Origin: a virus
Virus record (IMG/VR): IMGVR_UViG_3300045988_036701
Reading direction: 5' to 3' (one strand)
DNA length: 37,611 bases
Notes under the pieces: generated by a model
The model's database searches: none
Told to the model about the DNA's origin: nothing
What the model saw: the letters and a program-made list of their open reading frames with translations, nothing else
In this document: in pieces, positions 2,073 to 37,611 of the stretch
Numbering within the stretch: the stretch's first letter is position 1
Layout of the letters: each line of letters begins with the position of its first letter
Position numbers and translations under genes: made by a program

Positions 2073-3152
2073 ATGGGAAAATATTTTTCTTCTGAAAATG
2101 CTATAAGGTATTGGAATAATACAAAGAACTGGGTCATGGATCTTTTTGTGGCTAAGGTTGACGGGAAAGGACTGTCTACAGAGGATTATACTACTGCTGA
2201 GAAAAACAAGCTGGCTGATTTGCATAATACTACTGTAGATAGCGCGTTATCCAGCACATCAACAAATCCGGTACAGAATAAGGCAATCAATACAGCTTTA
2301 GCCGGTAAGGTACCGACAACTCGTAAGGTTAATAACAAGGCACTTTCCGCAGACATTAACCTTACGGCGGCTGATGTGGCAGCGATCCCGGCAGCACAGA
2401 AAGGCGCGGCCAGCGGAGTGGCGGAGCTTGACGCATCCGGGAAGGTTCCCGCAGCGCAGCTTCCCAGTTATGTAGACGATGTTTTAGAATATCCTGCAAA
2501 AAGTAACTTCCCAGCAACGGGAGAAACCGGAAAAATATATGTGTCTACGAACGATAATAAAACCTATCGTTGGAGCGGAAGCGCTTATGTCGAAATAAGT
2601 GCCAGTATTGCATTGGGAGAGACCGCCAGCACGGCTTATCCTGGCAATAAAGGAAAGATAGCTTACGATCACAGCCAGGCGGCACATGCTCCGGCAAATG
2701 CCGAACAGAATGTTCAGTCTGATTGGAGTGTGACAGATACATCATCTGATGCCTATATCAAAGGGAAACCGACCTCCATGCCTGCCAATGGTGGTAATGC
2801 GGCTACGGTTGGAGGACATACCGTAGGGATTGACGTTCCGGCAAATGCAATATTTACAGATACGAAACCCGTTGCCATGAAGGGCGCGACTGCTTCGGCA
2901 GCTGGTGCAGCTGGCTACGTTCCCACTCCGCCAGCTGGATCACAGACAAAGTTTTTGAGGGCTGACGGAACTTATCAAACACCTGCGAACACAACGTATT
3001 CTGCGTTTAAAGGAGCAACCGCCAGCGCTGCGGGTAGCTCCGGTTTGGTTCCGGCCCCTGCTGCTGGAAAGCAGGATAGTATATTATGTGCAGACGGAAC
3101 GTGGGCGGAGCCTTTAACTGACGCTGAAATTGATGCTATATGTGTTGTGTAA
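2073..3152 (+). CDS. Tail fibre protein
   Basis: Fibre-typical motifs are present: STNPVQNKAINTAL, GVAELDASGKVPAAQLPSYVDDV, GETGKIYV and LGETASTAYPGNKG. There are two tandem repeats of the form FKGATASAAG..GxVPxPxAG....ADGTW. RBS is GGAGG. Confidence 0.85.
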   Translation: MGKYFSSENAIRYWNNTKNWVMDLFVAKVDGKGLSTEDYTTAEKNKLADLHNTTVDSALSSTSTNPVQNKAINTALAGKVPTTRKVNNKALSADINLTAADVAAIPAAQKGAASGVAELDASGKVPAAQLPSYVDDVLEYPAKSNFPATGETGKIYVSTNDNKTYRWSGSAYVEISASIALGETASTAYPGNKGKIAYDHSQAAHAPANAEQNVQSDWSVTDTSSDAYIKGKPTSMPANGGNAATVGGHTVGIDVPANAIFTDTKPVAMKGATASAAGAAGYVPTPPAGSQTKFLRADGTYQTPANTTYSAFKGATASAAGSSGLVPAPAAGKQDSILCADGTWAEPLTDAEIDAICVV

Positions 3153-3166
3153 CGAGGTGAGGTCGC

Positions 3167-3388
3167 ATGGGAAAATTTATTAGCAAAGCTAATTTAGAAC
3201 GCATATGGAAAAAAACAAAGGCTTACACAGACAGAAAGTTCGATGATGTTAATCCTATAGGACTGTTTAATTTGCAGTATGATGCTGCAACTGGAAATCT
3301 GTACGCGGTTTATCCTGACGGATCACCGCCGCCTGCATTTGAATATGAAAAGGATACCGGGAACTTATACTATATAACGAGTGATTAA
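3167..3388 (+). CDS. Small fibre-module protein, mosaic of the 2073-type N-terminus and the 1188-type C-terminal tag
   Basis: MGKFISKANLERIWKKTK resembles MGKYFSSENAIRYWNNTK. PPPAFEYEKDTGNLYYITSD resembles NPPAFEYEKATGNLYYLIDD. RBS is GAGGTGAGG. Confidence 0.65.
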   Translation: MGKFISKANLERIWKKTKAYTDRKFDDVNPIGLFNLQYDAATGNLYAVYPDGSPPPAFEYEKDTGNLYYITSD

Positions 3389-3403
3389 GGAGGACTTTAT
3401 AAA

Positions 3404-3886
3404 ATGGCAAGAATTTTAATTGGAAATATAAAACCAACTTTAGTAAACAATGCCCTTACTACACAGGCAGGATTGTACGCCTTAGACGCGGCCATGGGAT
3501 ATACGCTTGACGATAAAATAGGCAAGGTAAGTAGTGATTTAGGTGCGTTAGAAACTAACCTTGCAATATCAAATTACACATATTATCCAGTTACTTCCAG
3601 CACTACTTCCAATGCAGCAACTATTAAAGGTACTGGTAAAGTTATCAGTATTGATGGAGCCTTAACTGCTAAAGCTGGATTATCCATCGAAAAGTGGGGG
3701 AAAACCCTCGTGGGGTGGGTCCCAGAGGGGACAGTCCCAACAAATGATGTGTACTGCTATATGCAAGATAACATGTACATCTTAATTGATACTCAGCGTC
3801 AGGTATGGCTATGCAATAGGACTGCGGCCACTAAAGATGTATCGAATGTCAGCTACCTATATTCGTGCACTTATTTAATACAATAA
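3404..3886 (+). CDS. Receptor-binding tail protein: constant N-terminus (aa 1-46) fused to the currently expressed C-terminal cassette a
   Basis: Strong RBS TAAGGAGG. The N-terminus NNALTTQAGLYALDAAMGYTLDDKIGK is typical of fibre/RBP shoulders. Recombination-site copy A lies at codons 43-46. Confidence 0.75.
   Translation: MARILIGNIKPTLVNNALTTQAGLYALDAAMGYTLDDKIGKVSSDLGALETNLAISNYTYYPVTSSTTSNAATIKGTGKVISIDGALTAKAGLSIEKWGKTLVGWVPEGTVPTNDVYCYMQDNMYILIDTQRQVWLCNRTAATKDVSNVSYLYSCTYLIQ
3529..3543 (+). repeat. Crossover-site copy A (AAGTAGTGATTTAGg)
   Basis: Read as (V)-S-S-D-L-(G) inside CDS 3404..3886. Confidence 0.7.
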
Positions 3887-3890
3887 TCAA

Positions 3891-4167
3891 TTAGACAAAC
3901 TTGAAAATTGCACCTAACTGGATTGAGCCGCTGAACGTACGATCAAAATATACCCGTAACACACCGTTTACAAAGGCTGTGCCGAGTACCTGCACTTGGT
4001 TTACTTGATAGTTGGTATTAAAAACTGATAGTACTCCACCAGACACTTGATCAGATTTGATTGACGACCAGTCCACATAGTTTGCATTATTTACCTGTGC
4101 TATGTAAGCTGCAAATTGTATCTTACTAATTTTAGACTGAGCATCTGATAAATCAGTTCGCACCTCT
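3891..4167 (-). other. Silent alternative C-terminal cassette b (92 codons, no independent ATG or RBS)
   Basis: The minus-strand frame is open from site B to the stop at 3891-3893. The first start-like codon is GTG 4163 with no Shine-Dalgarno sequence. It is convergent with cassette a, with stops 4 nt apart. Confidence 0.6.
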
Positions 4168-4182
4168 GCTAAATCACTACTT
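4168..4182 (-). repeat. Crossover-site copy B (AAGTAGTGATTTAGC on the minus strand)
   Basis: The plus strand reads GCTAAATCACTACTT. On the minus strand it is read E-S-S-D-L-A, in frame with cassette b. Confidence 0.7.
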
Positions 4183-4259
4183 TCACAATTAAGAAACTTG
4201 TTAATCAGAGCTGAAAGGCTCTTATTTTTATACCCGAAAAGGGAGAAAGGAGTCCGTAC

Positions 4260-4640
4260 ATGAAGGACACTATGATCTTAAAAAATGGAACTATTATTGA
4301 ACTGGAGGCAGGCGCAAGCCTGGGAGCCTTACAGGTGGTGGCGACTGATCGGGCGGCCATGGTGGCAACATGGGAGGTATTGACACCAGATAATCTTGCA
4401 GCAGTGCAGATCAAAAACGGAGATGGAATTGTAATCGGAAATTATACTGACCTCGTGTTAGCTTCTGAAACGTCCACGGTATCCGCTGATGGCGCTGTCC
4501 TTACAACGTATAGCCTGCGCGAGAAAACGGACATAGAGAAGCGCCTGGACGCTGTAGAGGAAGGTCAGGCGGTGCAGGATGGGGCAATCGGTGATCTCGG
4601 TGAAGCGGTTGGTACACTGGCGGAAGGAGGTATAGCATAA
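4260..4640 (+). CDS. XkdW-like phage protein (pre-lysis module)
   Basis: RBS GGGAGAAAGGAG. Size and position match the PBSX-type order XkdW-XkdX-XhlA-holin-lysin. Confidence 0.6.
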   Translation: MKDTMILKNGTIIELEAGASLGALQVVATDRAAMVATWEVLTPDNLAAVQIKNGDGIVIGNYTDLVLASETSTVSADGAVLTTYSLREKTDIEKRLDAVEEGQAVQDGAIGDLGEAVGTLAEGGIA

Positions 4641-4750
4641 TGGGGGCATTTTACGGAACACGGATCAGGCGCGGTATTATTACGATTAATGAGGTGCCGA
4701 AGTTTTGGAAAACAAAGACAGAAAAATGGCTGGAAGAGAATCCGGAATAA
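4640..4750 (+). CDS. XkdX-like small protein (36 aa), not in the supplied ORF track
   Basis: TAATG overlap with the previous gene. The product is MGAFYGTRIRRGIITINEVPKFWKTKTEKWLEENPE, which is typical of the short protein preceding holins in Firmicutes phages. Confidence 0.5.
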   Translation: MGAFYGTRIRRGIITINEVPKFWKTKTEKWLEENPE

Positions 4751-4769
4751 CTGACAGGAGGGCTTACAT

Positions 4770-5009
4770 ATGCCTACAGAGATAATGGTGGCTCTGATCG
4801 GGCTGGGAGGCAGTGCAATCGGTACATTCGCCGGCGTGTTTGCGTCGGCGAAACTGACCGCCTACCGGCTAGAGCAGCTGGAGAAGAAAGTGGATAAGCA
4901 TAACACAGTTATTGAGCGGACCTTTAAATTAGAGGAGGCTCAGGCGGTTATGCAGGAGCAGATAAAGGTTGTTAATCACAGGATCAGTGATCTGGAAAGA
5001 GAGGAATAA
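4770..5009 (+). CDS. Membrane-anchored coiled-coil lysis-cassette protein (XhlA-like role)
   Basis: One N-terminal transmembrane segment (VALIGLGGSAIGTFAGVFASA) followed by a coiled coil. RBS is GGAGGG. It lies immediately upstream of the holin. Confidence 0.7.
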   Translation: MPTEIMVALIGLGGSAIGTFAGVFASAKLTAYRLEQLEKKVDKHNTVIERTFKLEEAQAVMQEQIKVVNHRISDLEREE

Positions 5010-5011
5010 TT

Positions 5012-5278
5012 ATGGATTTTGGAATTGCGAGTGTTGCAGGTATCACAGCGCTGTGCTATTTAGCCGCTATGGCGGTTAAGGCAACGACAGTAGACAACAA
5101 ATGGCTGCCGGTAATCTGCGGAGTTATCGGGGCATTACTGGGCGTTGCGGGTATGTATACAATGCCGGATTTCCCGGCAGTGGATATAATCAACGCAGCG
5201 GCGGTTGGAACTGTATCGGGGCTTGCGGCTACCGGTATCAACCAGATTTATAAACAACTTAAGGGTGGCGGCCAGTAA
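5012..5278 (+). CDS. Holin (phi LC3 / Hol44-like)
   Basis: Multiple transmembrane segments, the motif GLAATGINQIYKQLKGG near the C-terminus, and a position before the endolysin. Confidence 0.8.
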   Translation: MDFGIASVAGITALCYLAAMAVKATTVDNKWLPVICGVIGALLGVAGMYTMPDFPAVDIINAAAVGTVSGLAATGINQIYKQLKGGGQ

Positions 5279-5345
5279 CGCTGGAGGTGATCCGCTAATC
5301 TCCCAGCTGGCAGGGTTAGAGCCGGAGCTGTTGCGATCTCGCAAC

Positions 5346-5368
5346 AGTTGTGACGTCACAACTTTTTA
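5346..5368 (+). terminator. 18-nt perfect palindrome AGTTGTGACGTCACAACT followed by TTTTT (terminator-like or protein-binding site)
   Basis: Seen directly, between the holin stop and the endolysin start. Confidence 0.4.
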
Positions 5369-5369
5369 T

Positions 5370-5395
5370 GGGCCTGGGATTCCGGGCCCTTTTTT
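5370..5395 (+). terminator. Rho-independent terminator between holin and endolysin
   Basis: GGGCCTGG-GATT-CCGGGCCC forms an 8-bp stem with one G-U pair, followed by TTTTTT. Confidence 0.55.
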
Positions 5396-5416
5396 AATGA
5401 AAGGATAGGTAAAATT

Positions 5417-6160
5417 ATGAGAGATATTACATTATGCCATCCGCGGCTTCAGGCACTGGCGGGGCGACTCGTGGAGGAGTGCAATAAGCAGGGACTTAAA
5501 ATTAAGATCGGCGAGACGCTGCGGACCGTGGCAGAGCAGGACGCGCTTTACGCTCAGGGCCGAACAAAGCCTGGGCCTATTGTGACCAATGCGCCGGGAA
5601 GTAACTTCAGCTCCTACCACCAGTGGGGGACCGCGTTTGACTTTTTCCGCAACGACGGCTCCGGGGCCTACAACGAGAGTGGCCGCTTTTTTGAGCGCGT
5701 CGGAGCTATTGGAGTCGCCCTGGGGCTGGAATGGGGCGGCAACTGGAAAAGTCCGGTAGACAAACCACACTTCCAGCTTTCAGACTGGGGTAGCACTACG
5801 GCCGGTATTAAGCGGTTGTACCGCAATCCGGATGAGTTTATGCACACCTGGGAGCCGGTGGAAGACCGGATCGGCTGGATCAGTACGCCCAATGGCTGGT
5901 GGTATCGCAGGCCAGACGGGACGTATCCGACGAACAAGTGGGAAGTTATCAATCACCACTGGTACCTGTTTAACGGTGACGGATACATGTGTACGAGCTG
6001 GCACCGGTGGAACGGCAGTGTATGCGATCCGGAAGATGGTTCTGGGGACTGGTACTATTTCGATCCGACCACAGGCGGAGCGTATGAGGGCGCGTGCTGG
6101 CGGAGTCGAGATAATGGAGCCATGGAAATATGGTTTGTAGATCAGGCAGATAGTATATAG
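5417..6160 (+). CDS. Endolysin: peptidase M15 (VanY/L-Ala-D-Glu peptidase-like) domain with C-terminal cell-wall-binding repeats
   Basis: Catalytic-domain motifs TLRTVAEQDALYAQGRT, SYHQWGTAFDF and LEWGGNW..DKPHFQ. The C-terminus carries the repeats WWYRRPDGTY, HHWYLFNGDGYM and DWYYFDPTTGGAY. Confidence 0.9.
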   Translation: MRDITLCHPRLQALAGRLVEECNKQGLKIKIGETLRTVAEQDALYAQGRTKPGPIVTNAPGSNFSSYHQWGTAFDFFRNDGSGAYNESGRFFERVGAIGVALGLEWGGNWKSPVDKPHFQLSDWGSTTAGIKRLYRNPDEFMHTWEPVEDRIGWISTPNGWWYRRPDGTYPTNKWEVINHHWYLFNGDGYMCTSWHRWNGSVCDPEDGSGDWYYFDPTTGGAYEGACWRSRDNGAMEIWFVDQADSI

Positions 6161-6183
6161 TTTTCGTACTTAAGAGCGAAAAA

Positions 6184-6208
6184 GGGGGATGATAATCCAT
6201 CCCCCTTT
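6184..6208. terminator. Bidirectional-looking terminator after the endolysin
   Basis: AAAAA-GGGGGATG-ATAATC-CATCCCCC-TTT. It abuts site copy C. Confidence 0.65.
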
Positions 6209-6209
6209 C

Positions 6210-6224
6210 AAGTAGTGATTTAGC
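6210..6224 (+). repeat. Crossover-site copy C (AAGTAGTGATTTAGC)
   Basis: Read S-S-S-D-L-A, in frame with cassette c. The frame opens only at 6196, directly after a stop. Confidence 0.7.
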
Positions 6225-6759
6225 GGCGGAATATGCTCTTGCCGGTACTACTTTTGTTACTGATTTTAATAATGCCTCCATGCCGGGGCGCTATCGAGTC
6301 TATAACGCCTCAGGGACCGCTGCACATGGTCCATATGCTGGATCAGTTGGTGGTTATGTAGATATCCTTACAGATGGAGATACTGCTGTAACAGGAACTA
6401 AAGTATATCAAGAACTACACGATCACAACGGAGACACATATACGCGGATTAATATAGCAGGCACATCATATGGTGCGTGGGAGCACTATACACAAGACTC
6501 CGATTTGGGAGGCAATCTGCAGCTCCGTTCAAAATTGTACACCGGTTCCGCTGCATCAGGAATTGTCGTTACCAGCCGAAACAATCCCATATCACTGGAA
6601 AATGTCAGTGGACAAATTCTTGCTCATGTAGATAGCAACCAGATCGGGTATGTATCGACATGTCCAACCAACCCGGTCACTTTTACGGTCGCAAATGGCC
6701 GTGTAAAAATGTATGTCGATAATACATTCATGGGGTTTATTACCACCACTACCACTTAA
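6225..6759 (+). other. Silent alternative C-terminal cassette c (178 codons; pyocin/tail-fibre knob-like domain)
   Basis: TDFNNASMPGRYRVYNASG..HGPYAGSVGGYVDIL..YQELHDHNGDTYTRINIAGTSYGAWEHY matches the knob-domain pattern. The internal ATG 6280 is preceded by CCTCC rather than an RBS. Confidence 0.6.
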
Positions 6760-6764
6760 TATGA

Positions 6765-7032
6765 TCATATTGCGGTCCACTGGCTCCATGCGTCAGTACC
6801 ACGGTCATAGTACGTTTTATACATTTTGCCATTTGCGTCGATGGATATCCAAAATTGATTATTTTCTGACACGCGGCCGCCTATTTGGATACCTGCGGAA
6901 ACACTTGTTAAATTCTGTTTATATGGTGTTCCCAGAGTGTTGGCTCCCCAAAGTGCAAAATGTATACCATTTGCCGCCTGCCATGATTTGGAGTCTGTAA
7001 GCACAGTGAGATTTTCCAGTCCGGAAAGGTTC
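6765..7032 (-). other. Silent alternative C-terminal cassette d (89 codons; knob-like tip)
   Basis: The minus-strand frame is open from site D (the stop TAG lies just upstream of it). QFWISIDANGKMYKTYYDRGTDAWSQWTAI is knob-like. The only start-like codon is GTG 7004, with no RBS. It is convergent with cassette c, with stops 5 nt apart. Confidence 0.6.
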
Positions 7033-7047
7033 GCTAAATCACTATTA
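7033..7047 (-). repeat. Crossover-site copy D (TAATAGTGATTTAGC on the minus strand, 13/15 match)
   Basis: The plus strand reads GCTAAATCACTATTA. On the minus strand it is read L-N-S-D-L-A, in frame with cassette d. Confidence 0.6.
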
Positions 7048-7347
7048 AGCTATCTCAAACCTTTGTTAATTGTTTGTCATACGCCGTTTTTCGCCGTTAT
7101 TCTGAGCTGAAAAAAAATATTGGTAGTATCAAACTAATATCATTATTTTTTAGCGGTACGCGAGAACCCTTGATTTTACAGGGAAATCCAAAAAATGCTT
7201 GCGAAATTCGACATTCTGTGAGAAAAGAAATTCACCCTTGAAATACGCTGCGATTTTAGAAGAATAACGTTTTTACAAGGGTTTAGAGGATTTACTTAAA
7301 GTGGTAAAATGATGAAAAAAAGTATAAATAGTATCATAATAGTATCA
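7048..7347. other. Non-coding AT-rich region, candidate attP with arm-type repeats
   Basis: TAGTATCA occurs at 7124-7131, 7329-7336 and 7340-7347. ACCCTTG occurs twice directly, and there is one inverted near-copy (ACAAGGGT). The position between the lysis genes and the integrase is the classic attP location. Confidence 0.4.
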
Positions 7348-8556
7348 TCACTTTATTTTATTAATTTCTTTTAGGTACCACTCCAGGGACATATGGGTAT
7401 AAACAGAATCAGTAACGTCTTTGATCTTGTGGCCGAGGAACATTCTGCGGGCATATTCATCTACTTTATAACGCTTTGCAAGTGTTGAAAAAGTGTGCCT
7501 GGTGTCGTGCGGCCTGTGATCCGGATCGAGTCCGAGTGCATCTACAACCTGGCCGAAGCGATAATGATAGGCTTTGTAATCGACAGCTTTGCCGCCAATG
7601 ACAAATAAGGTGGTACTTCTGGCAGCCTTCGCTTTCTCATAACTTTCTTTTACTATATCATAGATTTTTGGGTGTATGGGAACAATTCTGTTTTTTGACG
7701 ATTCTGTTTTATTACCTCCGGAGAAACTACGATTTTTTAAATCTATATTCTCCAGCAGTAAATGGCATAACTCATCTGGCCGCCAACCACTATAAATTCC
7801 GATGTACATTATGTTGGCTCCGGGAATAGTGAGATTCTTTGATAGCAATTCTATCTCCGCATCTGTAAAGATGATATGTGGTTTCTTAACGTCGGTATCT
7901 AAAGTCAGTTCAAAGGAACGGGCATAGTTTTTCTGTATAATATCTAATTCTCCAAATGCATAGTCATACATTAAATTCAACAGCGATTTTATAAGTCCCT
8001 TGATGTTGTCAGTAGCAGTTACTGTTTTGGTCTTTCTTACTGCACAGGCATTATTTATACAATGCTTTAATTGTGGCACCTTTGTATTTATTACCTTTTT
8101 ATCATATAGCGCCGAACAATATGACCATGCTAATTCAATATTTTGTTTACGGCTATCTGAAAGATCTGGAAAACGTTCTTTCGTAAAGGCTTCGTAGAGC
8201 TGCTGTAAAGTCATATTGTACGATGCGATATCATAAGGATCATCATGGTACTTTATGATTGAACTCATTGCTTTTCCTCTATCTTCATAATAACCGATCC
8301 AATCATAATCATAATGGGATTTCTTTGTTTTTTCGTTTAACACAAGCCGCGGATTCACTCCGGCCAGATATGGCTTACGGCGATTTCCACTTATTTTCCT
8401 GATTGTGCCATATCCATTGGGGAGGCGTTTTACGCCACGAGGTCTATTAAGCTTTTTGGAAAAAGGAGCGGAAGACAGAGGACATCCGCAATGTGGACAA
8501 GAAAACGCCTTATCACTTACTCTTCCTGCGCACTCTGGACATTGCATAAGTGCCAT
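7348..8556 (-). CDS. int: Tyrosine integrase with N-terminal zinc ribbon and arm-binding-type domain
   Basis: Zinc ribbon CPECAGRVSDKAFSCPHCGC. LPNGYGTIRKISGNRRKPY resembles an arm-DNA-binding domain. The catalytic region contains GWRPDEL..., HDTRHTF, LGH and VYTH. Confidence 0.9.
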   Translation of the reverse strand: MALMQCPECAGRVSDKAFSCPHCGCPLSSAPFSKKLNRPRGVKRLPNGYGTIRKISGNRRKPYLAGVNPRLVLNEKTKKSHYDYDWIGYYEDRGKAMSSIIKYHDDPYDIASYNMTLQQLYEAFTKERFPDLSDSRKQNIELAWSYCSALYDKKVINTKVPQLKHCINNACAVRKTKTVTATDNIKGLIKSLLNLMYDYAFGELDIIQKNYARSFELTLDTDVKKPHIIFTDAEIELLSKNLTIPGANIMYIGIYSGWRPDELCHLLLENIDLKNRSFSGGNKTESSKNRIVPIHPKIYDIVKESYEKAKAARSTTLFVIGGKAVDYKAYHYRFGQVVDALGLDPDHRPHDTRHTFSTLAKRYKVDEYARRMFLGHKIKDVTDSVYTHMSLEWYLKEINKIK

Positions 8557-10100: not shown

Positions 10101-10325
10101 ATGGCTTTCGATTATAGTAGATTACGCGGCCGTATTGTTGAGAAGTATAAAAATCAAATTGAGTTTGCAAGACGTATGCAGTGGTCGGAACGAACACTTT
10201 CCTTAAAGCTAAATGGGAAAGTTGCGTGGAAACAGCCTGAGATATGTAAGGCGATTGAATTACTCGGACTTAAAGACGATGATATTCTGGCATATTTTTT
10301 TATGAAAAAAGTTCAAGATATTTAA
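10101..10325 (+). CDS. Cro-like regulator (DUF739 family)
   Basis: FDYSRLRGRIVEKYKNQIEFARRMQWSERTLSLKLNGKVAWKQPEI is the DUF739 pattern. It is divergent from the repressor. Confidence 0.8.
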   Translation: MAFDYSRLRGRIVEKYKNQIEFARRMQWSERTLSLKLNGKVAWKQPEICKAIELLGLKDDDILAYFFMKKVQDI

Positions 10326-10340
10326 CTTAAAGGAGGACGC

Positions 10341-10862
10341 ATGAACGATTTAACAAGAACAACCATCACATCAATGGAAGCCGCTGAGTGGTGCGGTAAA
10401 GATCATTCAAAATTGCTGAGGGATATTCGCAATTATATAACTCAGTTAGGAGAAGCCAAAATTGGATTCACCGATTTTTTTAAGGAAGCCACCTACATAA
10501 CAGACCAGAACAAAACCCTTCCTTGTTACCTGGTTACTAAAAAGGGCTGTGAGTTTATCGCCCATAAAATGACAGGCCAGAAGGGGACCGAATTCACCGC
10601 GCGGTACATTAACCGCTTTCATGACATGGAAGAAGGAAAACTCCCTTGTCCCCTCAACCCAATCATTGCTTCCAGCGTTGCGGAACTGGGTCGCGTGACT
10701 GAACGCGTCATGACGAAGCAGGGATCGGCTCCATATAAGATCGCAGAAGCTTTTAAAATGGAGTGTGAGCAGTTCGGTATTCAGCTTCCAGACGACTTTG
10801 TAAAGGTTCCGGACGAAGTACAGATTTACGATCAGATGCATATGTCCAGTTTCCTTAAATAA
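10341..10862 (+). CDS. Rha-family phage regulatory protein / antirepressor
   Basis: ITSMEAAEWCGKDHSKLLRDIRNY...CYLVTKKGCEFIAHKMTGQKGTEFTARYINRFHDME. Confidence 0.8.
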   Translation: MNDLTRTTITSMEAAEWCGKDHSKLLRDIRNYITQLGEAKIGFTDFFKEATYITDQNKTLPCYLVTKKGCEFIAHKMTGQKGTEFTARYINRFHDMEEGKLPCPLNPIIASSVAELGRVTERVMTKQGSAPYKIAEAFKMECEQFGIQLPDDFVKVPDEVQIYDQMHMSSFLK

Positions 10863-10877
10863 GGAGGTGCCGTTTCT

Positions 10878-11135
10878 ATGATAGGAAGAATACGGACTGC
10901 AACGGCCGCTAAGATCTGCGGAGTGTCAACTGGGTATCTGCTTGAGAAGATGCGAACAGGAGAGTACGATCTCGGGGACTACAACAAAAATGGTAAGAAA
11001 GCTTATGCCGTGATTCGTCCCGGGAAGCTGGCAGCGCATCTTCAGCGCAGTATCAGCGAGATTGACACAGCAGTGAGAGAGATTGAAGGAGAGGAGGGAC
11101 GTAAAACGACATGCAGAAGTACATTGACAATATAG
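10878..11135 (+). CDS. Small helix-turn-helix DNA-binding protein (possible excisionase)
   Basis: RBS GGAGGTG. TATAAKICGVSTGYLLEKMRTGE looks like a MerR/Xis-type helix-turn-helix. Confidence 0.45.
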   Translation: MIGRIRTATAAKICGVSTGYLLEKMRTGEYDLGDYNKNGKKAYAVIRPGKLAAHLQRSISEIDTAVREIEGEEGRKTTCRSTLTI

Positions 11136-11269
11136 ACGACTTCGAGGACGACAGCCGGCCGCCGATTGTAGACTGGGTGGAATGGCTGCTGGTTGGGATC
11201 TTTGATCTGGCCGGAGCAGCAGCCTGTGCCTACATAGGGTATCTACTATTACGGGCATGTGTGTTGTAA
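11111..11269 (+). CDS. Possible small membrane protein (52 aa), not in the ORF track
   Basis: MQKYIDNIDDFEDDSRPPIVDWVEWLLVGIFDLAGAAACAYIGYLLLRACVL has one C-terminal transmembrane segment. The RBS spacing is weak. Confidence 0.3.
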   Translation: MQKYIDNIDDFEDDSRPPIVDWVEWLLVGIFDLAGAAACAYIGYLLLRACVL

Positions 11270-11365
11270 AAAAGAAACCCAGACGGGTGGAGCCGTCCGG
11301 GAATCAAGGTAACTGATAATATATTCACGCCCTCATTATAACAGAGGGAGACAGGAGATTGCAAG

Positions 11366-11692
11366 ATGAAAATTATTATGGATTTAAATGGTATTAAAAT
11401 TGAAAAAGAAATTCCAGACGATTTACGGAAGCCGGCGCAGATCATCTTTAATAAAGTGGAAGGGATTGATACTGATCCAACGGTAACGTTAATGGGACCG
11501 AATAGCGGCATATATGCAGGATCATGTGCGATAGTAACCAGTGTTTTAAAAGAGCTGCATCCAGATAATAAAAAGATGCAGAAAGCAGTTTTAGACCTTT
11601 TGTACGCAAGCGTATCAGGAGATCTCGGTCTGAATACAGCTGATAAGCCGAGGAGTTACGGTCCGATCAGCCCGGACGATGTAGATTTCTAA
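11366..11692 (+). CDS. Hypothetical early protein
   Basis: ORF with RBS AGGAG. No recognisable motif. Confidence 0.55.
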   Translation: MKIIMDLNGIKIEKEIPDDLRKPAQIIFNKVEGIDTDPTVTLMGPNSGIYAGSCAIVTSVLKELHPDNKKMQKAVLDLLYASVSGDLGLNTADKPRSYGPISPDDVDF

Positions 11693-11711
11693 TTCAGAGG
11701 GAGGGCAAACC

Positions 11712-12365
11712 ATGCGTGAAGCTGTGAAACTCACCCCACTTACTCCAGAGGAACAGACCTTTGCAGAGGAGAATTACGAAGCTCTTGTCAAAGCAATGAG
11801 AACGCATCACCTGAGTAATGATATGTACGATGTGGCTGCTATGGGATTCTTACATGCTGTCAAGAAATGGTTTGCCCGCCCGGATCTTCGGCAGTGGTCC
11901 TTTCAGACTATTGTGAATAAAACTGTTTGGAGCAAATTAAGCGGCGAGCGGGAAAGAGAAAAACGCCGTATTCAGACAGTGAGTCTTGATGAAGTTATAC
12001 CTGGAACTGACGGCTTAACCTATGGGACCATAATAACAGATGCAAATACCAGTTATTTAAGAAGAGAGGAAAGCAAGACAATGAAAATAAATTTTGATGT
12101 AAAAATACCGGAAGCTGCAAAAATGGGACGAGTCCCCAGCGTAGAGATAGAAACTGTTTTAGATTTCTTAGACTCGACCCATCGTACATTATGTTTCGAG
12201 TATGAAACAGCCAAAGATGCAACAAGGAAAGCGGGAGTTTTGAGATCTTGGAAAAAGAATCATAACAGGGCTGATATTAATATCTACAAAATGGCAGATA
12301 GAGTATTTATTGAAAAAATAGTAGCAAAGGGAAGGAGAAAAGCAAATGTCAATGAAGATAAATAA
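11712..12365 (+). CDS. Hypothetical protein with sigma-70 region-2-like N-terminus (tentative)
   Basis: RBS GGGAGGG. YDVAAMGFLHAVKKW resembles sigma region 2. Confidence 0.5.
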   Translation: MREAVKLTPLTPEEQTFAEENYEALVKAMRTHHLSNDMYDVAAMGFLHAVKKWFARPDLRQWSFQTIVNKTVWSKLSGEREREKRRIQTVSLDEVIPGTDGLTYGTIITDANTSYLRREESKTMKINFDVKIPEAAKMGRVPSVEIETVLDFLDSTHRTLCFEYETAKDATRKAGVLRSWKKNHNRADINIYKMADRVFIEKIVAKGRRKANVNEDK

Positions 12366-13623
12366 GCTTGAGATCGAGAACGTCAAACGCGTGAAGGCGG
12401 TTAAAATCGAACCAACTTCTGATGGCCTTACTATCATTGGAGGAAAGAATAATCAGGGTAAGACCTCCGTGTTGGACGCGATTGCGTGGACACTGGGCGG
12501 CGAGCGGTACCGGCCAGTGGCAGCCACCCGGGAAGGCTCCGTAATCCCACCAATCTTAAAAATTGTCATGAATAACGGTCTGGTCGTTGAACGTAAAGGA
12601 AAAAACAGCAGCCTTAAGGTGACGGATCCCAGCGGCCAGAAGGGTGGTCAGCAGCTCCTGGACAGCTTTGTGGAACAGCTTGCCCTCGATCTCCCGAAGT
12701 TTATGGAAGCGTCGGACAAGGAGAAAGCAAACATTCTTCTGAAGATCATCGGCGTCGGCCCTCAACTGGCAGAGATGGAGCAGAAGGAAAAAGAACTGTA
12801 TAACGAGCGGCTGTATGTCGGACGGACCGCAGATCAGAAAGAGAAGTACGCAAAGGAGCAGCCTTATTATCCGGATGCACCACAGGAGCTTGTTTCCCCA
12901 TCCGAGCTGATCCGGAAACAGCAGGATATACTCGTCCAGAATGGTGAGAACCAGAGAAAGCGTGAGAATCTGCACCAGCTGGAACAGGAATACCAGCGCG
13001 TTACCGAACAGATTCAGGAACTGCTGAAGGAGCAGACCAGGCTTACGGAAAGTTTAAAAATTGCCCGTACATCGGCCGCCGATCTGGTGGATCAGTCCAC
13101 AGAGGAACTGGAGCGGAATATTACTGATATCGAAGAGATTAACAGGAAGGTGAGGGCTAACTTAGATAAGGACAAGGCCGAAGAGGACGCCAAAGACTAT
13201 AAGGAACGGTACACGCAGCTTACTACGGAGATTGAGGGCATCCGGACTCAGAAAACAGACCTGCTGAAGAATGCAGACCTTCCGCTTCCCGGTCTTACTG
13301 TAGAAGATGGGGATTTGCTGTACAACGGGCATAAGTGGGATGATATGTCCGGATCGGATCAGCTGAGAGTGGCGACGGCCATCGTCCGGAAACTGAATCC
13401 GAACTGCGGGTTTGTACTCCTGGACAAGTTGGAGCAGATGGACCTCGACACGCTGACAGAGTTTGGTAAGTGGCTGGAGCAGGAAGGGCTTCAGGCGATT
13501 GCAACCCGTGTAAGTACCGGGGGAGAGTGCAGCATTATTATTGATGATGGTTATGTGGTAGGGCAGGAAGTGACAGAGCCTGAACCGCCTAAGAAAACAG
13601 AATGGAAGGCAGGTGCATTTTAA
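12346..13623 (+). CDS. SMC/SbcC-like AAA ATPase (recombination module)
   Basis: N-terminal Walker A GGKNNQGKTSVLDAI, a long central coiled coil, and a C-terminal VLLDKLEQMD (Walker B/D-loop-like). Confidence 0.8.
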   Translation: MSMKINKLEIENVKRVKAVKIEPTSDGLTIIGGKNNQGKTSVLDAIAWTLGGERYRPVAATREGSVIPPILKIVMNNGLVVERKGKNSSLKVTDPSGQKGGQQLLDSFVEQLALDLPKFMEASDKEKANILLKIIGVGPQLAEMEQKEKELYNERLYVGRTADQKEKYAKEQPYYPDAPQELVSPSELIRKQQDILVQNGENQRKRENLHQLEQEYQRVTEQIQELLKEQTRLTESLKIARTSAADLVDQSTEELERNITDIEEINRKVRANLDKDKAEEDAKDYKERYTQLTTEIEGIRTQKTDLLKNADLPLPGLTVEDGDLLYNGHKWDDMSGSDQLRVATAIVRKLNPNCGFVLLDKLEQMDLDTLTEFGKWLEQEGLQAIATRVSTGGECSIIIDDGYVVGQEVTEPEPPKKTEWKAGAF

Positions 13624-21840: not shown

Positions 21841-22863
21841 ATGGCAGAACAGATGAGTATAGATAACGTGGTAATCAATATAATGAATGGGCTTATGCCG
21901 GTAATCGAAGAAGAGAAGCGCTTAAAGGATGCAGAACAGGTATTATACATGACTCTGGCAAACCTCCAGATCTTTAAGGAGGAAACAGCATTGTCAACAG
22001 AGCTGGACCGGACAAATGAATATCTGATGCAGTATCTGCTGAATATGAGGCTTACAGGCTGTACTGACGGCAGTATCCAAAATTACCGCAACACTCTACG
22101 GAATATGCTGGCCTATGTCAACAAGAATGTTGTAGACATAGAGTATGCAGACCTTAAGAAGTATCTGGCATACGGGAAGTTGGTCAGGGCGTGGAAAGAT
22201 CGTACATATAACAGCAAGTTAATTACAATCCGTAGTTTCTTCGCATGGCTGTATGAGGAGGACATGCTCCCAAACAATCCAGCAAAGAAGTTAAAAGAAA
22301 CTAAGGTGGAGCGCCGGATCGGGCCGACACTGAAGCCGGAGCAGCGCGAAGAAGTCCGGTGCGCGTGTATCGACGAACTGGAATTATCGCTTTGTGATCT
22401 GCTTTATACGTCTGGTGTCCGTGTCTCGGAGCTATGCCGGTTAGATATTGCAGATATAGATTTTAGTAACATGAGGGCCATCGTTTACGGTAAAGGCCGC
22501 AAGGAACGCGAAGTCTATTTCACAGGACAGGCGAAACATCATCTGGAAAAGTATCTTGAATCGAGAGATGATGATAACCCGGCGCTGTTCGTCAGTCGGA
22601 GGAAACCACATAAGCGAATGCAGCCGGGAACAGTGCGCGATATCATGAAAGACATTAAAGAACGAGATCCGGCGCTTGCAAATGTAAAACTGACGCCGCA
22701 TGTCTTCAGGCGGACAGTTGGAACAGACATGATTAACAAAGGGGCTCCGCTGGAGTTGGTGGCTGAGAAGCTGGGTCACGTACAACTCGATACAACGAAA
22801 CAGTGTTATGCAGCCATTGCCAGATCGACGGTTCAGCAGGCCCATAACCGCTATGTAGGATAG
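21841..22863 (+). CDS. Xer-like tyrosine recombinase (no arm-binding domain); candidate invertase for the tail-tip switch
   Basis: SAM-like N-terminal domain (NYRNTLRNMLAY...IRSFFAWLYEEDMLPNNPA). The catalytic residues are in GVRVSEL, KGRKEREVYF, HVFRRT, LGH and QCY. Confidence 0.85.
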   Translation: MAEQMSIDNVVINIMNGLMPVIEEEKRLKDAEQVLYMTLANLQIFKEETALSTELDRTNEYLMQYLLNMRLTGCTDGSIQNYRNTLRNMLAYVNKNVVDIEYADLKKYLAYGKLVRAWKDRTYNSKLITIRSFFAWLYEEDMLPNNPAKKLKETKVERRIGPTLKPEQREEVRCACIDELELSLCDLLYTSGVRVSELCRLDIADIDFSNMRAIVYGKGRKEREVYFTGQAKHHLEKYLESRDDDNPALFVSRRKPHKRMQPGTVRDIMKDIKERDPALANVKLTPHVFRRTVGTDMINKGAPLELVAEKLGHVQLDTTKQCYAAIARSTVQQAHNRYVG

Positions 22864-22871
22864 GAGGATCT

Positions 22872-23297
22872 ATGAATAAGGGAGTATTAGAACAGTATAT
22901 TGATGCCTGTGAACTGATTAAGGAAACAGAAGCAGACATCCGGAGGGTCAAAAAGCAGCGTAAGACGATAATTCAGGATTCGGTAAAAGGATCTATGCAT
23001 GATTTCCCATATGCTGCACAGAATTTCAAAGTACAGGGCATGGTATACGCTGCTGTAAGAGAGCCGGGAGCACTGGCAGCTTATGAGCAGCTTCTGGAGG
23101 AGCGCAAGGCCAGGGCGGAGGAAATCAAAATACAGGTTGAGGCATGGCTGAATACGATTCCACAGCGGATGCAAAGGATAATAAGATTTAGATTCTTTGA
23201 GAATTTATCATGGGGAGAAACGGCCTCGAGAATCGGGAGAAAGGCTACTGCGGACAGTATACGAATGGAATTTACAAATTTCATGAAAGTAGCATAA
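22872..23297 (+). CDS. Late-gene regulator candidate (DUF1492 / sigma-70 region-4-like)
   Basis: N-terminal coiled coil. The C-terminus IPQRMQRIIRFRFFENLSWGETASRIGRKATADSIRMEF resembles sigma region 4. It lies immediately upstream of the packaging operon. Confidence 0.6.
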   Translation: MNKGVLEQYIDACELIKETEADIRRVKKQRKTIIQDSVKGSMHDFPYAAQNFKVQGMVYAAVREPGALAAYEQLLEERKARAEEIKIQVEAWLNTIPQRMQRIIRFRFFENLSWGETASRIGRKATADSIRMEFTNFMKVA

Positions 23298-36026: not shown

Positions 36027-37611
36027 TGTACAGAGTAACCGTTATCACAGACGGTATAGAATACCCACTGCATGAGCCACGGGACAGTGATGGAGAGTTA
36101 CAGCTGATTGATCCGGTGGTCACTCCGGAGATGGGGAAAAATGGCAGCTTTACTTTTCGAATATCTCCGCTGCATCCTAACAAGGATAAGATTCAGGCAT
36201 TAAGAAGCGAGATTACAGTATACGATGATGAAGAAATCCTGTTCGCAGGGCGGCCGATCGGAGACGAGAGCGACTTCTATAACATAGGAAAAGCGACCTG
36301 TGAGGGGGAACTTGCCTATTTATTGGACAGCATTCAGCGTCCATATAAGTTTACCGGGAGCAGTGCGGCCTTCTTGCGGCAAGTGCTGGAGGTGCACAAC
36401 AGCCAGGTGGAAGAACGGAAGCGTTTTGAAGTGGGGAATATCACTGTCGCCGATATAGCGCCGGAAATACAGAGGTCAAATACTTCATGCGCCAATTCTC
36501 TGGAGACCCTGAAAACACAGCTTGTGGCAGTTAATGGCGGATATCTCAGGGTACGCAGAGCCGGCGGGAAGAAATACCTGGATTATGTCAGCGATTACGG
36601 AGGGATAAACAGCCAGCCAATCCGGTTTGGGGAGAATCTGCTTGATCTGACCCGGTATGTAAAGCCCACATCAATCATTACGGCTCTCATTCCGTATGGG
36701 GCGACGCTTGAAAGTAACAACACAGAAGAGGAAGAGAAACCTATTGATATCACGACGGTAAATGACGGAAAGGATTATATATACGATCAGGATGCAGTGA
36801 ATGCTTACGGCTGGATCTGGGGGACCCAGACGTTCGATGATCTAACAGATCCGGAGGCATTACTCAGCCGCGCGCGGGCTTACCTTACGGAGTGTGTAGC
36901 CTTGCCGGTTACATTGGAGCTCACGGCGGTTGACCTGGGGCTGATTGATGTTGATGTGCAGAAACTTAAAGTAGGATACTGGACGCAGGTAGAAAGCGTA
37001 CCGCATAAGATCAGTCGGCGGTTCATGCTGTCGAAAAAAGCGATCCATCTGGACAATCCGGGGAAAGACGAAGTGATCCTTGGACAGACGCTTCCCAGCT
37101 TTACAGGGGCCGTGAGCAAGGGGCAGATGGAGATATCAGACCGTATCAAACGTGTGGCGGCCAGTGCAAGCCGCGAGATCAACAGGAAGGTAGAGAATGC
37201 CACTCAGCTTATTACAGGCGGCAAGGGCGGCTATGTAGTGCTTGATGTAGACGATCCGGACACAGGGAAGCGGTCCCTTCCGTGGCGCATTCTTATCATG
37301 GACACGCCGGACAAAGAGACAGCAACCAGTGTGATCCAGCTTAACAAGAACGGGATCGGCTTCAGCCGGACGGGGATCAATGGACCATATGACAATGCCT
37401 GGACCATAGATGGGAATCTGGTAGCTGATTTTATCACAACGGGAACTATGCTTGCCGACCGGATCCGCGGCGGTATCCTTGAGGTGGGCGGCGCTGGCCT
37501 GGCGCGAGATGGTAGTATCGCGGTCAAGAATGTACAAGGCGAGATAATCGGTACCTGGGATAAGACCGGGCTCCATGTGTTGTTAGGTGTAATTGAAGGC
37601 AGTACGATCAA
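36026..37611 (+). CDS. Tail-associated lysin / prophage tail endopeptidase-family minor structural protein (N-terminal part; continues at 1..470)
   Basis: TAATG overlap with the Dit gene. There is no stop before the window end. GYLRVRRAGGKKYLDYVSDYGGINSQPIRFGENLLDL is present. Confidence 0.85.
   Translation, partial: MYRVTVITDGIEYPLHEPRDSDGELQLIDPVVTPEMGKNGSFTFRISPLHPNKDKIQALRSEITVYDDEEILFAGRPIGDESDFYNIGKATCEGELAYLLDSIQRPYKFTGSSAAFLRQVLEVHNSQVEERKRFEVGNITVADIAPEIQRSNTSCANSLETLKTQLVAVNGGYLRVRRAGGKKYLDYVSDYGGINSQPIRFGENLLDLTRYVKPTSIITALIPYGATLESNNTEEEEKPIDITTVNDGKDYIYDQDAVNAYGWIWGTQTFDDLTDPEALLSRARAYLTECVALPVTLELTAVDLGLIDVDVQKLKVGYWTQVESVPHKISRRFMLSKKAIHLDNPGKDEVILGQTLPSFTGAVSKGQMEISDRIKRVAASASREINRKVENATQLITGGKGGYVVLDVDDPDTGKRSLPWRILIMDTPDKETATSVIQLNKNGIGFSRTGINGPYDNAWTIDGNLVADFITTGTMLADRIRGGILEVGGAGLARDGSIAVKNVQGEIIGTWDKTGLHVLLGVIEGSTI
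37557..37611. repeat. Terminal overlap, identical to 1-55
   Basis: Exact 55-bp identity. Confidence 0.9.

Follow-up and report, generated by a model that had tools for sequence, protein, structure and literature searches.

The shufflon of the IncI1 plasmid R64 is a strictly inversional pilus-adhesin system, in which the recombinase Rci is encoded beside an array that holds no unrelated essential genes, and the sfx sites follow a 19-bp consensus made of a 7-bp spacer and a conserved 12-bp arm. The Gin, Cin and Min systems of Mu, P1 and p15B use a serine invertase, sites of ~26 bp and an enhancer, and carry out intramolecular inversion only. In recombinase-mediated cassette exchange, as engineered with Cre/lox and FLP/FRT, a segment between inverted identical sites either inverts or is swapped via two crossovers. 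Programmed inversions in prophage tail fibres have already been catalogued. The Rin shufflon of Bifidobacterium prophages has 11-bp rix sites, with its cassettes in one contiguous array that a recombinase flanks and that precedes the lysis genes (Mavrich et al. 2018, PMC6109161), and a BV01-like Phocaeicola phage carries an active multi-cassette tail-fibre shufflon with 10-bp directional motifs, within 1.7 kb flanked by a recombinase (PMC13596623). Here we describe the tail-fibre tip locus of the viral record IMGVR_UViG_3300045988_036701, a stretch of 37,611 nucleotides that was analysed as a whole and is called the window below. We consider it probable that the four sites of this locus make up an active, split tail-fibre shufflon, whose two cassette-pair slots lie on either side of a module reaching from a 126-aa gene to the endolysin gene.

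Crossover sites, tip cassettes and the enclosed lysis block

The 13-mer AGTAGTGATTTAG occurs exactly at three positions of the window, and a fourth copy differs from it by one mismatch. The sites (assigned from a motif scan and junction sequences) and the parts of the tip gene between them are as follows:

3404-3529, plus strand: constant N-terminal part of the tip gene (N), 42 codons up to the core, 46 aa through SSDL, delimited by public fusion proteins
3530-3542, plus strand: crossover site A, AGTAGTGATTTAG
3543-3886, plus strand: tip cassette a, the one expressed in the window; a and b move together as one unit
3891-4168, minus strand: tip cassette b, silent, with a reading frame open in the SSDL frame
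4169-4181, minus strand: crossover site B
6211-6223, plus strand: crossover site C
6224-6759, plus strand: tip cassette c, silent in the window; the public fusion protein N+c of the commonest isoform has 224 aa (P0017)
6765-7033, minus strand: tip cassette d, silent; the public fusion protein N+d (P0018) is found on four contigs
7034-7046, minus strand: crossover site D, AATAGTGATTTAG

The site order is + - + -, that is, at least three alternating short repeats bound the segments, as in a shufflon in the broad sense. The four copies conform to the pattern A[G/A]TAGTGATTTAG; no further copy with up to two mismatches was found in the 37.6 kb, the chance expectation at one mismatch or fewer is 0.04, and none of 100 shuffles reached four copies. 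Comparison of 26 site contexts revealed an invariant core of 11 bp, TAGTGATTTAG, which is asymmetric and has no conserved arm on either side. In the junction sequences every breakpoint falls inside this core: the two variable bases 5' of it stay part of the fixed flank, whereas the base next to its 3' end goes along with the cassette, and the variant base of site D remains with the right-hand flank in every isoform. A motif common to sites B and D, ATTAACAA at a distance of 17-24 nt, was rejected as a possible accessory site, because the corresponding sites of relatives do not preserve it.

All four sites encode S/N-S-D-L (SSDL or NSDL) in the frame of the open tip cassette, with site B heading cassette b, site C cassette c and site D cassette d. 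In the state captured by the window, the open reading frame (ORF) 3404-3886 encodes the N+a protein of 160 aa with site A inside it (..KVSSDL, then GALETN..). Among public proteins the identical 46-aa N-terminus is joined to ~20 different C-termini right after KVSSDL, and in-frame fusions of N with a, c and d are all present in public data. The tip protein family is characterized by a MARILIGNIK start, often by collagen-like repeats, by ..ALDAAMGKTL.. and (L/V)(N/S)S(D/N)L, and by a hypervariable C-terminus; the genomes that encode it are Lachnospiraceae. One copy otherwise identical to the phage (L034, ERZ27238009 k111_4003, locus 2157-2570) holds a different cassette pair in its first slot, with a tip of 137 aa that is ~75% identical to part of c, while c and d remain in the slot behind the lysis genes; thus, cassette content, beyond arrangement, varies between phage copies.

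As a preliminary description of this DNA had proposed, sites B and C are inverted copies that bracket the lysis genes, the enclosed block being 4182-6210. It comprises the following features:

4182-4259, plus strand: left end of the nested block (Lx), a leader (AAACTTGTTAATCAG) with a hairpin at 4207-4222 and a T run, and another small hairpin ahead of the ribosome-binding site, from comparison of relatives
4260-4640, plus strand: 126-aa protein, found by homology at the same position in related phages, no profile match
4641-4751, plus strand: 36-aa protein, homologues in relatives 51-92% identical
4770-5009, plus strand: XhlA-like membrane protein (Pfam XhlA, E 2.7e-6, under the curated cut-off; PHROG 1863, 1e-15)
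5012-5278, plus strand: holin of the Hol44 family (Pfam PF16079, 1e-22; PHROG holin)
5346-5389, plus strand: two terminator-like hairpins between holin and endolysin, 5346-5363 and 5370-5389, each followed by a T run, from folding
5417-6160, plus strand: endolysin, M15 peptidase with choline-binding repeats (Pfam and PHROG profiles)
6182-6207, either strand: strong hairpin at the right block end (Ly), terminator-like on both strands (-22.7 kcal/mol; z -4.7 on the plus and -4.3 on the minus strand)

The holin gene and the peptidoglycan hydrolase gene stand next to each other at the close of the late region, as in a phage lysis cassette, and the XhlA-like gene (by a weak Pfam match), the holin and the endolysin are recognized by profile, in line with the earlier assignment. 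The names XkdW-like and XkdX-like given at the same time to the 126-aa and 36-aa genes reflect position only: neither protein has a Pfam match to XkdW or XkdX even at E <=10, and PDB yielded nothing meaningful. In the relative L036, a 42-aa gene in the position of the 36-aa gene does match PF09693 (XkdX).

Terminator-like hairpins named earlier at 4207, 5346 and 6184 are present, that at 4207-4222 being weak, and such structures lie at both block ends. The hairpin 6182-6207 is stable on the minus strand as well, where it is followed by TTTTT. From these predicted structures the nested block appears to be transcriptionally insulated at both ends, by the conserved leader hairpins on one side and by the hairpin 6182-6207 on the other. 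In the leader of the 126-aa gene, the motif AAACYYGTWAAYCAG, a U-run hairpin and then another hairpin directly against the ribosome-binding site are conserved, and the stems persist with different sequences in ten relatives (L077, L113, L117, L122, L089, L124, L125, L128, L091 and L096), the compensatory changes being judged by eye and RNAalifold on a MAFFT alignment giving a weak consensus. The leader 4182-4259 could be a terminator/antiterminator or another regulatory RNA. An Rfam search of the block hairpins and the leader gave sub-threshold matches only, on the terminator hairpins. The idea of a late-promoter motif common to the Lx leader and the rest of the genome was discarded, since its matches are no more numerous than expected by chance. 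Between holin and endolysin, three consecutive hairpins lie within 5280-5420, two of them with T runs, from which the endolysin may be transcribed or regulated separately from the holin.

Arrangements of the locus in public metagenomes

Isoforms of the phage were collected as assembled public gut-metagenome contigs found by exact-protein look-up (L-numbers are contig or locus labels), and were mapped in terms of the segments N, a, b, Lx, L (the lysis block), Ly, c, d and post, the flank right of site D. At least six arrangements of the same phage were found, all broken exactly at the cores:

Arrangement 1, N[a b]Lx-L-Ly[c d]post: the window, ZHAN20, one full 105-kb contig and several partial contigs
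Arrangement 2, N[c d]Lx-L-Ly[a b]post: eight contigs of 51-184 kb and many partial ones, the commonest state
Arrangement 3, N[d c]Lx-L: L021 and L023, yielding the N+d protein P0018
Arrangement 4, N[d c]Ly(-)L(-): L024 (ERZ28594837), an inverted lysis block with the endolysin 3' end on the minus strand
Arrangement 5, N[a b]post: L005 (ERZ28577390) and L007 (ERZ27264881), integrated copies without L and c/d
Arrangement 6, L-Ly[d c]post-int: L035 (ERZ28584580)

One element thus exists in different arrangements with breakpoints at its repeats, as is expected of a shufflon. Arrangements 1 and 2 show 0 single-nucleotide polymorphisms (SNPs) over 11-20 kb in independent samples, and therefore rearrangement is far faster than point mutation. 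The second site pair had earlier been considered a possible dead remnant, to be recognized if A x B isomers alone were observed. Since N is fused to c in the commonest isoform, and to d in others, this pair is live. The topological nesting of the lysis block holds in every arrangement.

A few old alleles that became fixed and spread clonally, or a relic C/D pair, would also account for the fact that two arrangements cover most long contigs, and contigs that assemble across the region indicate that one state dominates many samples. We consider such an absence of ongoing recombination very improbable, given the identity of arrangements 1 and 2 in unrelated samples, the number of arrangements with exact core breakpoints and the occurrence of common cassette pairs in several backbones. 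The cassette contigs, moreover, are mostly very short: the longest contig with cassette b is below 2 kb in 113 of 133 collection blocks; the recombinase gene and the endolysin show this in 60 of 593 and in 86 of 524 blocks, respectively. The contrast fits branching of assembly graphs at the sites.

The isoforms could also be read as assembly artefacts of short repeats, and the rare ones are indeed short contigs that cross repeated modules. This explanation is scarcely credible for the set as a whole. The 13-bp repeat is far under the k-mer sizes of assemblers, arrangement 2 is present on its eight long contigs from different assemblers and studies and arrangement 1 on contigs of 37-105 kb, and the N+c and N+d fusion proteins recur in independent samples. 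No scaffold gaps were found in the rare-isoform contigs. Exact scans of IMG/VR and the metagenome contig collection for the junction of the N flank and the core returned no matches, and hence give no unbiased census of the expressed cassette.

The observed states are unequal, whereas frequent neutral inversion at the four inverted site pairs predicts 16 equally common ones. Distinct contigs that lead from a backbone end via a cassette pair into one end of L carry the lysis block forward in ~30 cases and inverted in one; similarly, the silent slot behind the lysis genes keeps the orientation seen in the window by ~27:1. Neither the [b a] orientation nor a product of B x C alone was met among the contigs mapped.

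In the mechanism that we propose, the constant N-terminus (3404-3529) would be joined at the asymmetric core of 11-13 bp, with TAGTGATTTAG invariant, to the neighbouring cassette, so that slot 1 (a/b) would be the expression slot and slot 3 (c/d), behind the lysis genes beside attP, the storage slot. A site-specific recombinase, most likely the armless Xer-like tyrosine recombinase encoded at 21841-22863, would exchange strands within the core. Recombination of the inverted pairs A x B, C x D, B x C and A x D would produce inversions, that of the direct pairs A x C and B x D would produce either excision with reinsertion or deletion, and that of sites on different genomes would exchange cassettes between phages. 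Because the lysis module lies between B and C, it would always fall within the rearranging span; it would be inverted by A x D or B x C and lost by direct-pair deletion. Copies with the module forward predominate, presumably because they alone express the lysis genes from the late operon.

Two routes could lead from arrangement 1 to arrangement 2. The first would take four inversions, via a state of the L024 type and then one of the L021 type. In the second, B x D would excise a circle containing L and c/d and leave N[a b]post, as in L005 and L007, and reinsertion through C into A would then give arrangement 2 with all orientations kept. Contigs resembling intermediates of both routes exist, but all of them are short and cross a cassette module of 650-830 bp that recurs in mixed populations, and they may be chimeric assemblies.

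The first route is the only one available to an R64-like shufflon restricted to inversion, where c and d reach the expression site by A x D and further inversions, flipping of the lysis block is obligatory and recombination of direct pairs is forbidden. Such a system would preserve the + - + - pattern, as every isoform does, and its four inversion moves reach 16 states, rather than the eight arrangements counted in the preliminary description. L024 is the exact A x D product, L021 and L023 fit the next intermediate, L035 shows the C x D inversion, and the core is asymmetric like the R64 sfx and Rin rix sites. However, the passage from arrangement 1 to 2 requires four inversions, yet both end states dominate and the intermediates are rare; the orientation of the silent slot is kept and [b a] is missing; and the N[a b]post contigs resemble B x D deletions, although chimeric assembly of L005 and L007 is possible. 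Besides, near-identical cassette pairs with boundaries at the cores are found in other backbones and need intermolecular recombination, which is beyond a purely intramolecular invertase. Restriction to inversion is therefore unlikely in our estimation.

The same observations bear on the claim that reaching c or d flips the entire lysis block. L024 (N joined to d, c on the minus strand, and the endolysin 3' end likewise) matches such a predicted product exactly, but ~30 of 31 informative contigs have a forward block, and flipping does not hold as the usual route, since N-c and most N-d isoforms keep the block forward with the a/b pair behind it. Nor is it established that the system must be inversion-biased as in R64: the silent pairs almost always keep their orientation, as a swap by excision and reinsertion through the direct site pairs predicts.

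Candidate recombinase and probable exchange between phages

Two tyrosine recombinases are encoded in the window, one beside attP and the other remote from the sites; the features discussed in this section are:

7215-7230: attP crossover region (phage/host junction in integrated copies), outside the shufflon, sequence unrelated to the core
7348-8556, minus strand: phage integrase, 402 aa, with an N-terminal zinc ribbon, unlikely shufflon enzyme
21841-22863, plus strand: armless Xer-like tyrosine recombinase, 340 aa, candidate shufflon enzyme by domain profiles and alignment
10195-12390 of IMGVR_UViG_3300045988_110401: embedded recombinase segment of the related locus L100, from comparison of relatives

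The 340-aa protein has a SAM-like core-binding domain and a catalytic domain and no arm-binding domain, and its best profiles are XerA, XerC and XerD, all below cut-offs. In three related loci (L044, L100 and L092) an Xer-like recombinase occupies the segment between two cassette pairs; these embedded recombinases are 58-81% identical among themselves and align with the 340-aa protein end to end at 31-34% identity. Six related contigs with a shufflon encode orthologues of the latter (43-44% identity), located ~17-19 kb upstream of the tip gene. The 340-aa sequence itself turned up in this phage alone, which does not discriminate between the hypotheses. On balance we slightly favour the 340-aa Xer-like protein as the shufflon recombinase, on the grounds of its predicted architecture and its relatives.

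Other candidates from the window were set aside. A serine invertase was not detected, as tblastn with an approximate Gin-like query gave a best E of 0.23 and the ORF translations contain the two tyrosine recombinases only. The integrase is unlikely, because the attP crossover near 7223 is unrelated to the core and the protein shows no relation to the embedded recombinases; it is the sole recombinase neighbouring the array, beyond attP, and no enzyme is encoded directly beside the array as in R64.

More doubtful is an enzyme supplied in trans, either by a co-resident prophage with a recombinase of the L044/L100 type or as a host invertase, with the 340-aa protein serving, for instance, in multimer resolution. 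L044 shares the core, the a/b cassettes and the lysis block identically, and has between its cassette pairs a recombinase of its own, 31% identical to that of the window; from these identities, the two phages must meet in one host. Inverted loci of bifidophages without a flanking recombinase, presumed to be served in trans, are also on record. A dedicated role of the 340-aa protein is indicated by the presence of its orthologue at the same relative position in all six related shufflon contigs that lack an embedded recombinase and by the absence of the L100 contig, which has an embedded one, from the contigs with such an orthologue, as well as by its full-length alignment, N-terminal extension included, with the embedded proteins. 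The embedded recombinases of L100 and L044, 81% identical, go with the cores ATATAGGGATAT and TAGTGATTTAG, respectively, which share 7 of 9 central bases; such recombinase-core pairs make a natural series for the evolution of site specificity.

The split layout, + - followed by the 126-aa gene and the lysis genes, sometimes with extra genes, and then + -, recurs in L077/L105, L113, L128, L130, L033 and L036, where the cores are the same or different and the middle segment is 4 kb in L077/L105 and 5.3 kb in L113. In L128 the core is AAATCAGAATTT and a near-empty second slot stands just before the integrase gene. The second site pair of this locus (IMGVR_UViG_3300045988_176298, 12321-12447) lies 114 bp apart with no cassette in between, and could be either an empty storage slot or a landing pad. 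Inversion is seen in relatives too: the embedded recombinase gene has opposite orientations in L161 and L163, and among ~27 related loci with both the tip gene and the 126-aa gene, the whole middle segment is inverted in one (L088, from IMG 3300022758, versus its relative L113). Two described elements were of no help in this comparison. The C. scindens phage phiCs5676-1 has a related leader and 126-aa gene, but one core-like site and an insertion sequence (IS), and is uninformative; in TPELB_ph1 an Xer-like gene stands between tail fibre and holin, and no clear repeated sites were found.

Identity between different phages ends at the cores. Four phage contexts that differ elsewhere (L033, L036, L037 and L039) share window positions 6210-7046, from core C through D, at 99.8-100% identity, and positions 3532-5640, which start within core A and continue up to where the contig ends, are 100% identical in L044, whose tail genes differ. 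Identity of 11-13 bp is too short for ordinary homologous recombination. The fact that identity ends at such short cores points to site-specific recombination between co-resident genomes as the probable way in which cassettes and lysis modules are shared across backbones.

Tentatively, and with rather less than even confidence, the cores can be viewed as general module junctions for a community of Lachnospiraceae phages, at which a non-directional tyrosine recombinase performs natural cassette exchange. If so, a cassette pair would shift between the expression and storage slots across the lysis module without itself being inverted; tips, and even the whole lysis module, would be traded between unrelated backbones that meet in one cell; and the orientation or presence of the lysis module would constitute a heritable switch, giving non-lysing prophage variants.

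Several observations weigh against an active split shufflon served by the 340-aa enzyme. The ~27:1 bias of the silent slot is unexpected if four inversions are frequent and neutral. The rare isoforms, inverted (L024, L088) or deleted (L005, L007), are short contigs, and each could be a chimeric path through a cassette pair of 600-830 bp that is repeated in a mixed population. Cassette b is a silent 90-aa ORF on 66 public contigs and an N+b fusion was never met in them. The candidate recombinase is 18.5 kb from the sites and no more than 34% identical to the embedded ones, and L044 serves an identical core with so different a recombinase that a trans-acting enzyme is possible. Finally, transcription of the lysis genes would have to get past the conserved hairpin 4207-4222.

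Phage context and comparison with known systems

The first 55 bases of the window are an exact copy of positions 37557-37611 and a tail gene spans the junction, hence the window represents a phage genome of 37,556 bp that was assembled as a circle. It corresponds to the ENA contig RAYM16-1_SAMEA3182083 scaffold_526. On SAYO22-1 scaffold_43, two tandem phage copies are spaced by exactly this length, and host flank and endolysin proteins carry Hungatella (Lachnospiraceae) names in public sources. The element is thus a temperate phage of the gut bacterium Hungatella with a circular unit of 37,556 bp. Its gene order is tail, tail-fibre genes, shufflon region, attP, integrase, repressor module, replication, second tyrosine recombinase, and packaging and head. 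Neither megablast of positions 3100-7400 nor tblastn of the tip protein had a match in 50,697 records of cultured phages.

Upstream of the variable tip gene lies the following:

2073-3152, plus strand: tail fibre protein, 359 aa (several PHROG tail, tail-fibre and minor-tail families, E down to 1e-27)

Small proteins encoded at 1188-1574 and 3167-3388 have a common C-terminal motif, ..YPDxxxPPAFEYEKxTGNLYY..D, and one or two copies of proteins with the YPDxxxPPAFEYEK motif are encoded immediately upstream of the variable tip gene in L077, L088 and L097; they may be fibre connector or assembly modules. On the other side of the shufflon, host DNA starts near window position 7223 in integrated copies. 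The integrase has an N-terminal zinc-ribbon-like CxxC..CxxC segment in place of a recognized arm-binding domain, and an integrase with zinc-ribbon Pfam matches adjoins the host flank of the prophage in L016 and L019. Direct repeats of 42 nt, 79% identical (7108-7149 and 7313-7354), flank the attP crossover just upstream of the integrase gene and may be arm-type integrase binding sites. The 141-aa protein encoded at 22872-23297, directly after the Xer-like recombinase, has a weak match to sigma-70 region 4, and may act as the regulator of late genes or as a small subunit of the terminase.

Tail-fibre shufflons are a known form of host-range bet-hedging by phages. In this phage the rearranging span encloses genes essential for lysis, and the layout is conserved in related gut phages, which poses the testable question of how a phage tolerates or exploits recombination able to flip or delete its own lysis genes. 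With cores bounding both shared cassettes and the lysis module, site-specific recombination may be a driver of gut phage mosaicism. Such loci also break metagenome assemblies systematically and can split one phage into several apparent ones, with consequences for host-range prediction and strain tracking. Swapping of tips as such is known, and no report of lysis genes inside a tail-fibre shufflon was found in the literature. What is new here is the split shufflon, the remote or trans-acting recombinase, the enclosed lysis module and the cores that also mark the boundaries of exchange between phages.

As in R64, segments are bounded by short asymmetric repeats in alternating orientation and provide alternative C-termini for one constant gene, and R64-like tyrosine-recombinase chemistry is likely. 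Unlike the sfx repeats of 19 bp, however, the sites of this phage have 11 invariant bp and no arm, and unlike the strictly inversional R64 shufflon, deletion-like products and products of an orientation-preserving swap are seen, with chimeric assembly as a possible source. With Gin, Cin and Min the locus shares the choice of alternative tail-fibre C-termini by site-specific rearrangement, whereas no serine invertase is encoded in the window. Cassette pairs that are shared with boundaries exactly at the cores would be analogous to engineered cassette exchange.

The BV01-like shufflon likewise acts on a tail-fibre gene of a gut phage, with configurations that vary between samples, but it is compact and encloses no lysis genes (PMC13596623). 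The resemblance to Rin covers a temperate phage of a gut Gram-positive host, and a constant N-terminus of a receptor-binding protein with alternative C-terminal cassettes at a short asymmetric repeat (PMC6109161). In both, a short asymmetric site of ~11 bp stands upstream of every variable cassette, and the question of how deletion between direct sites is avoided is common to the two. The enzyme credited with Rin rearrangement is an armless tyrosine recombinase of XerD type and not the integrase, and the 340-aa candidate has a similar architecture. The core sequences are unrelated (TTCCCTAACCC in Rin and TAGTGATTTAG in this phage), and, unlike the flanking recombinase and contiguous array of Rin, the candidate recombinase of this phage lies 18.5 kb away and its array is split by a lysis module inside the rearranging span.

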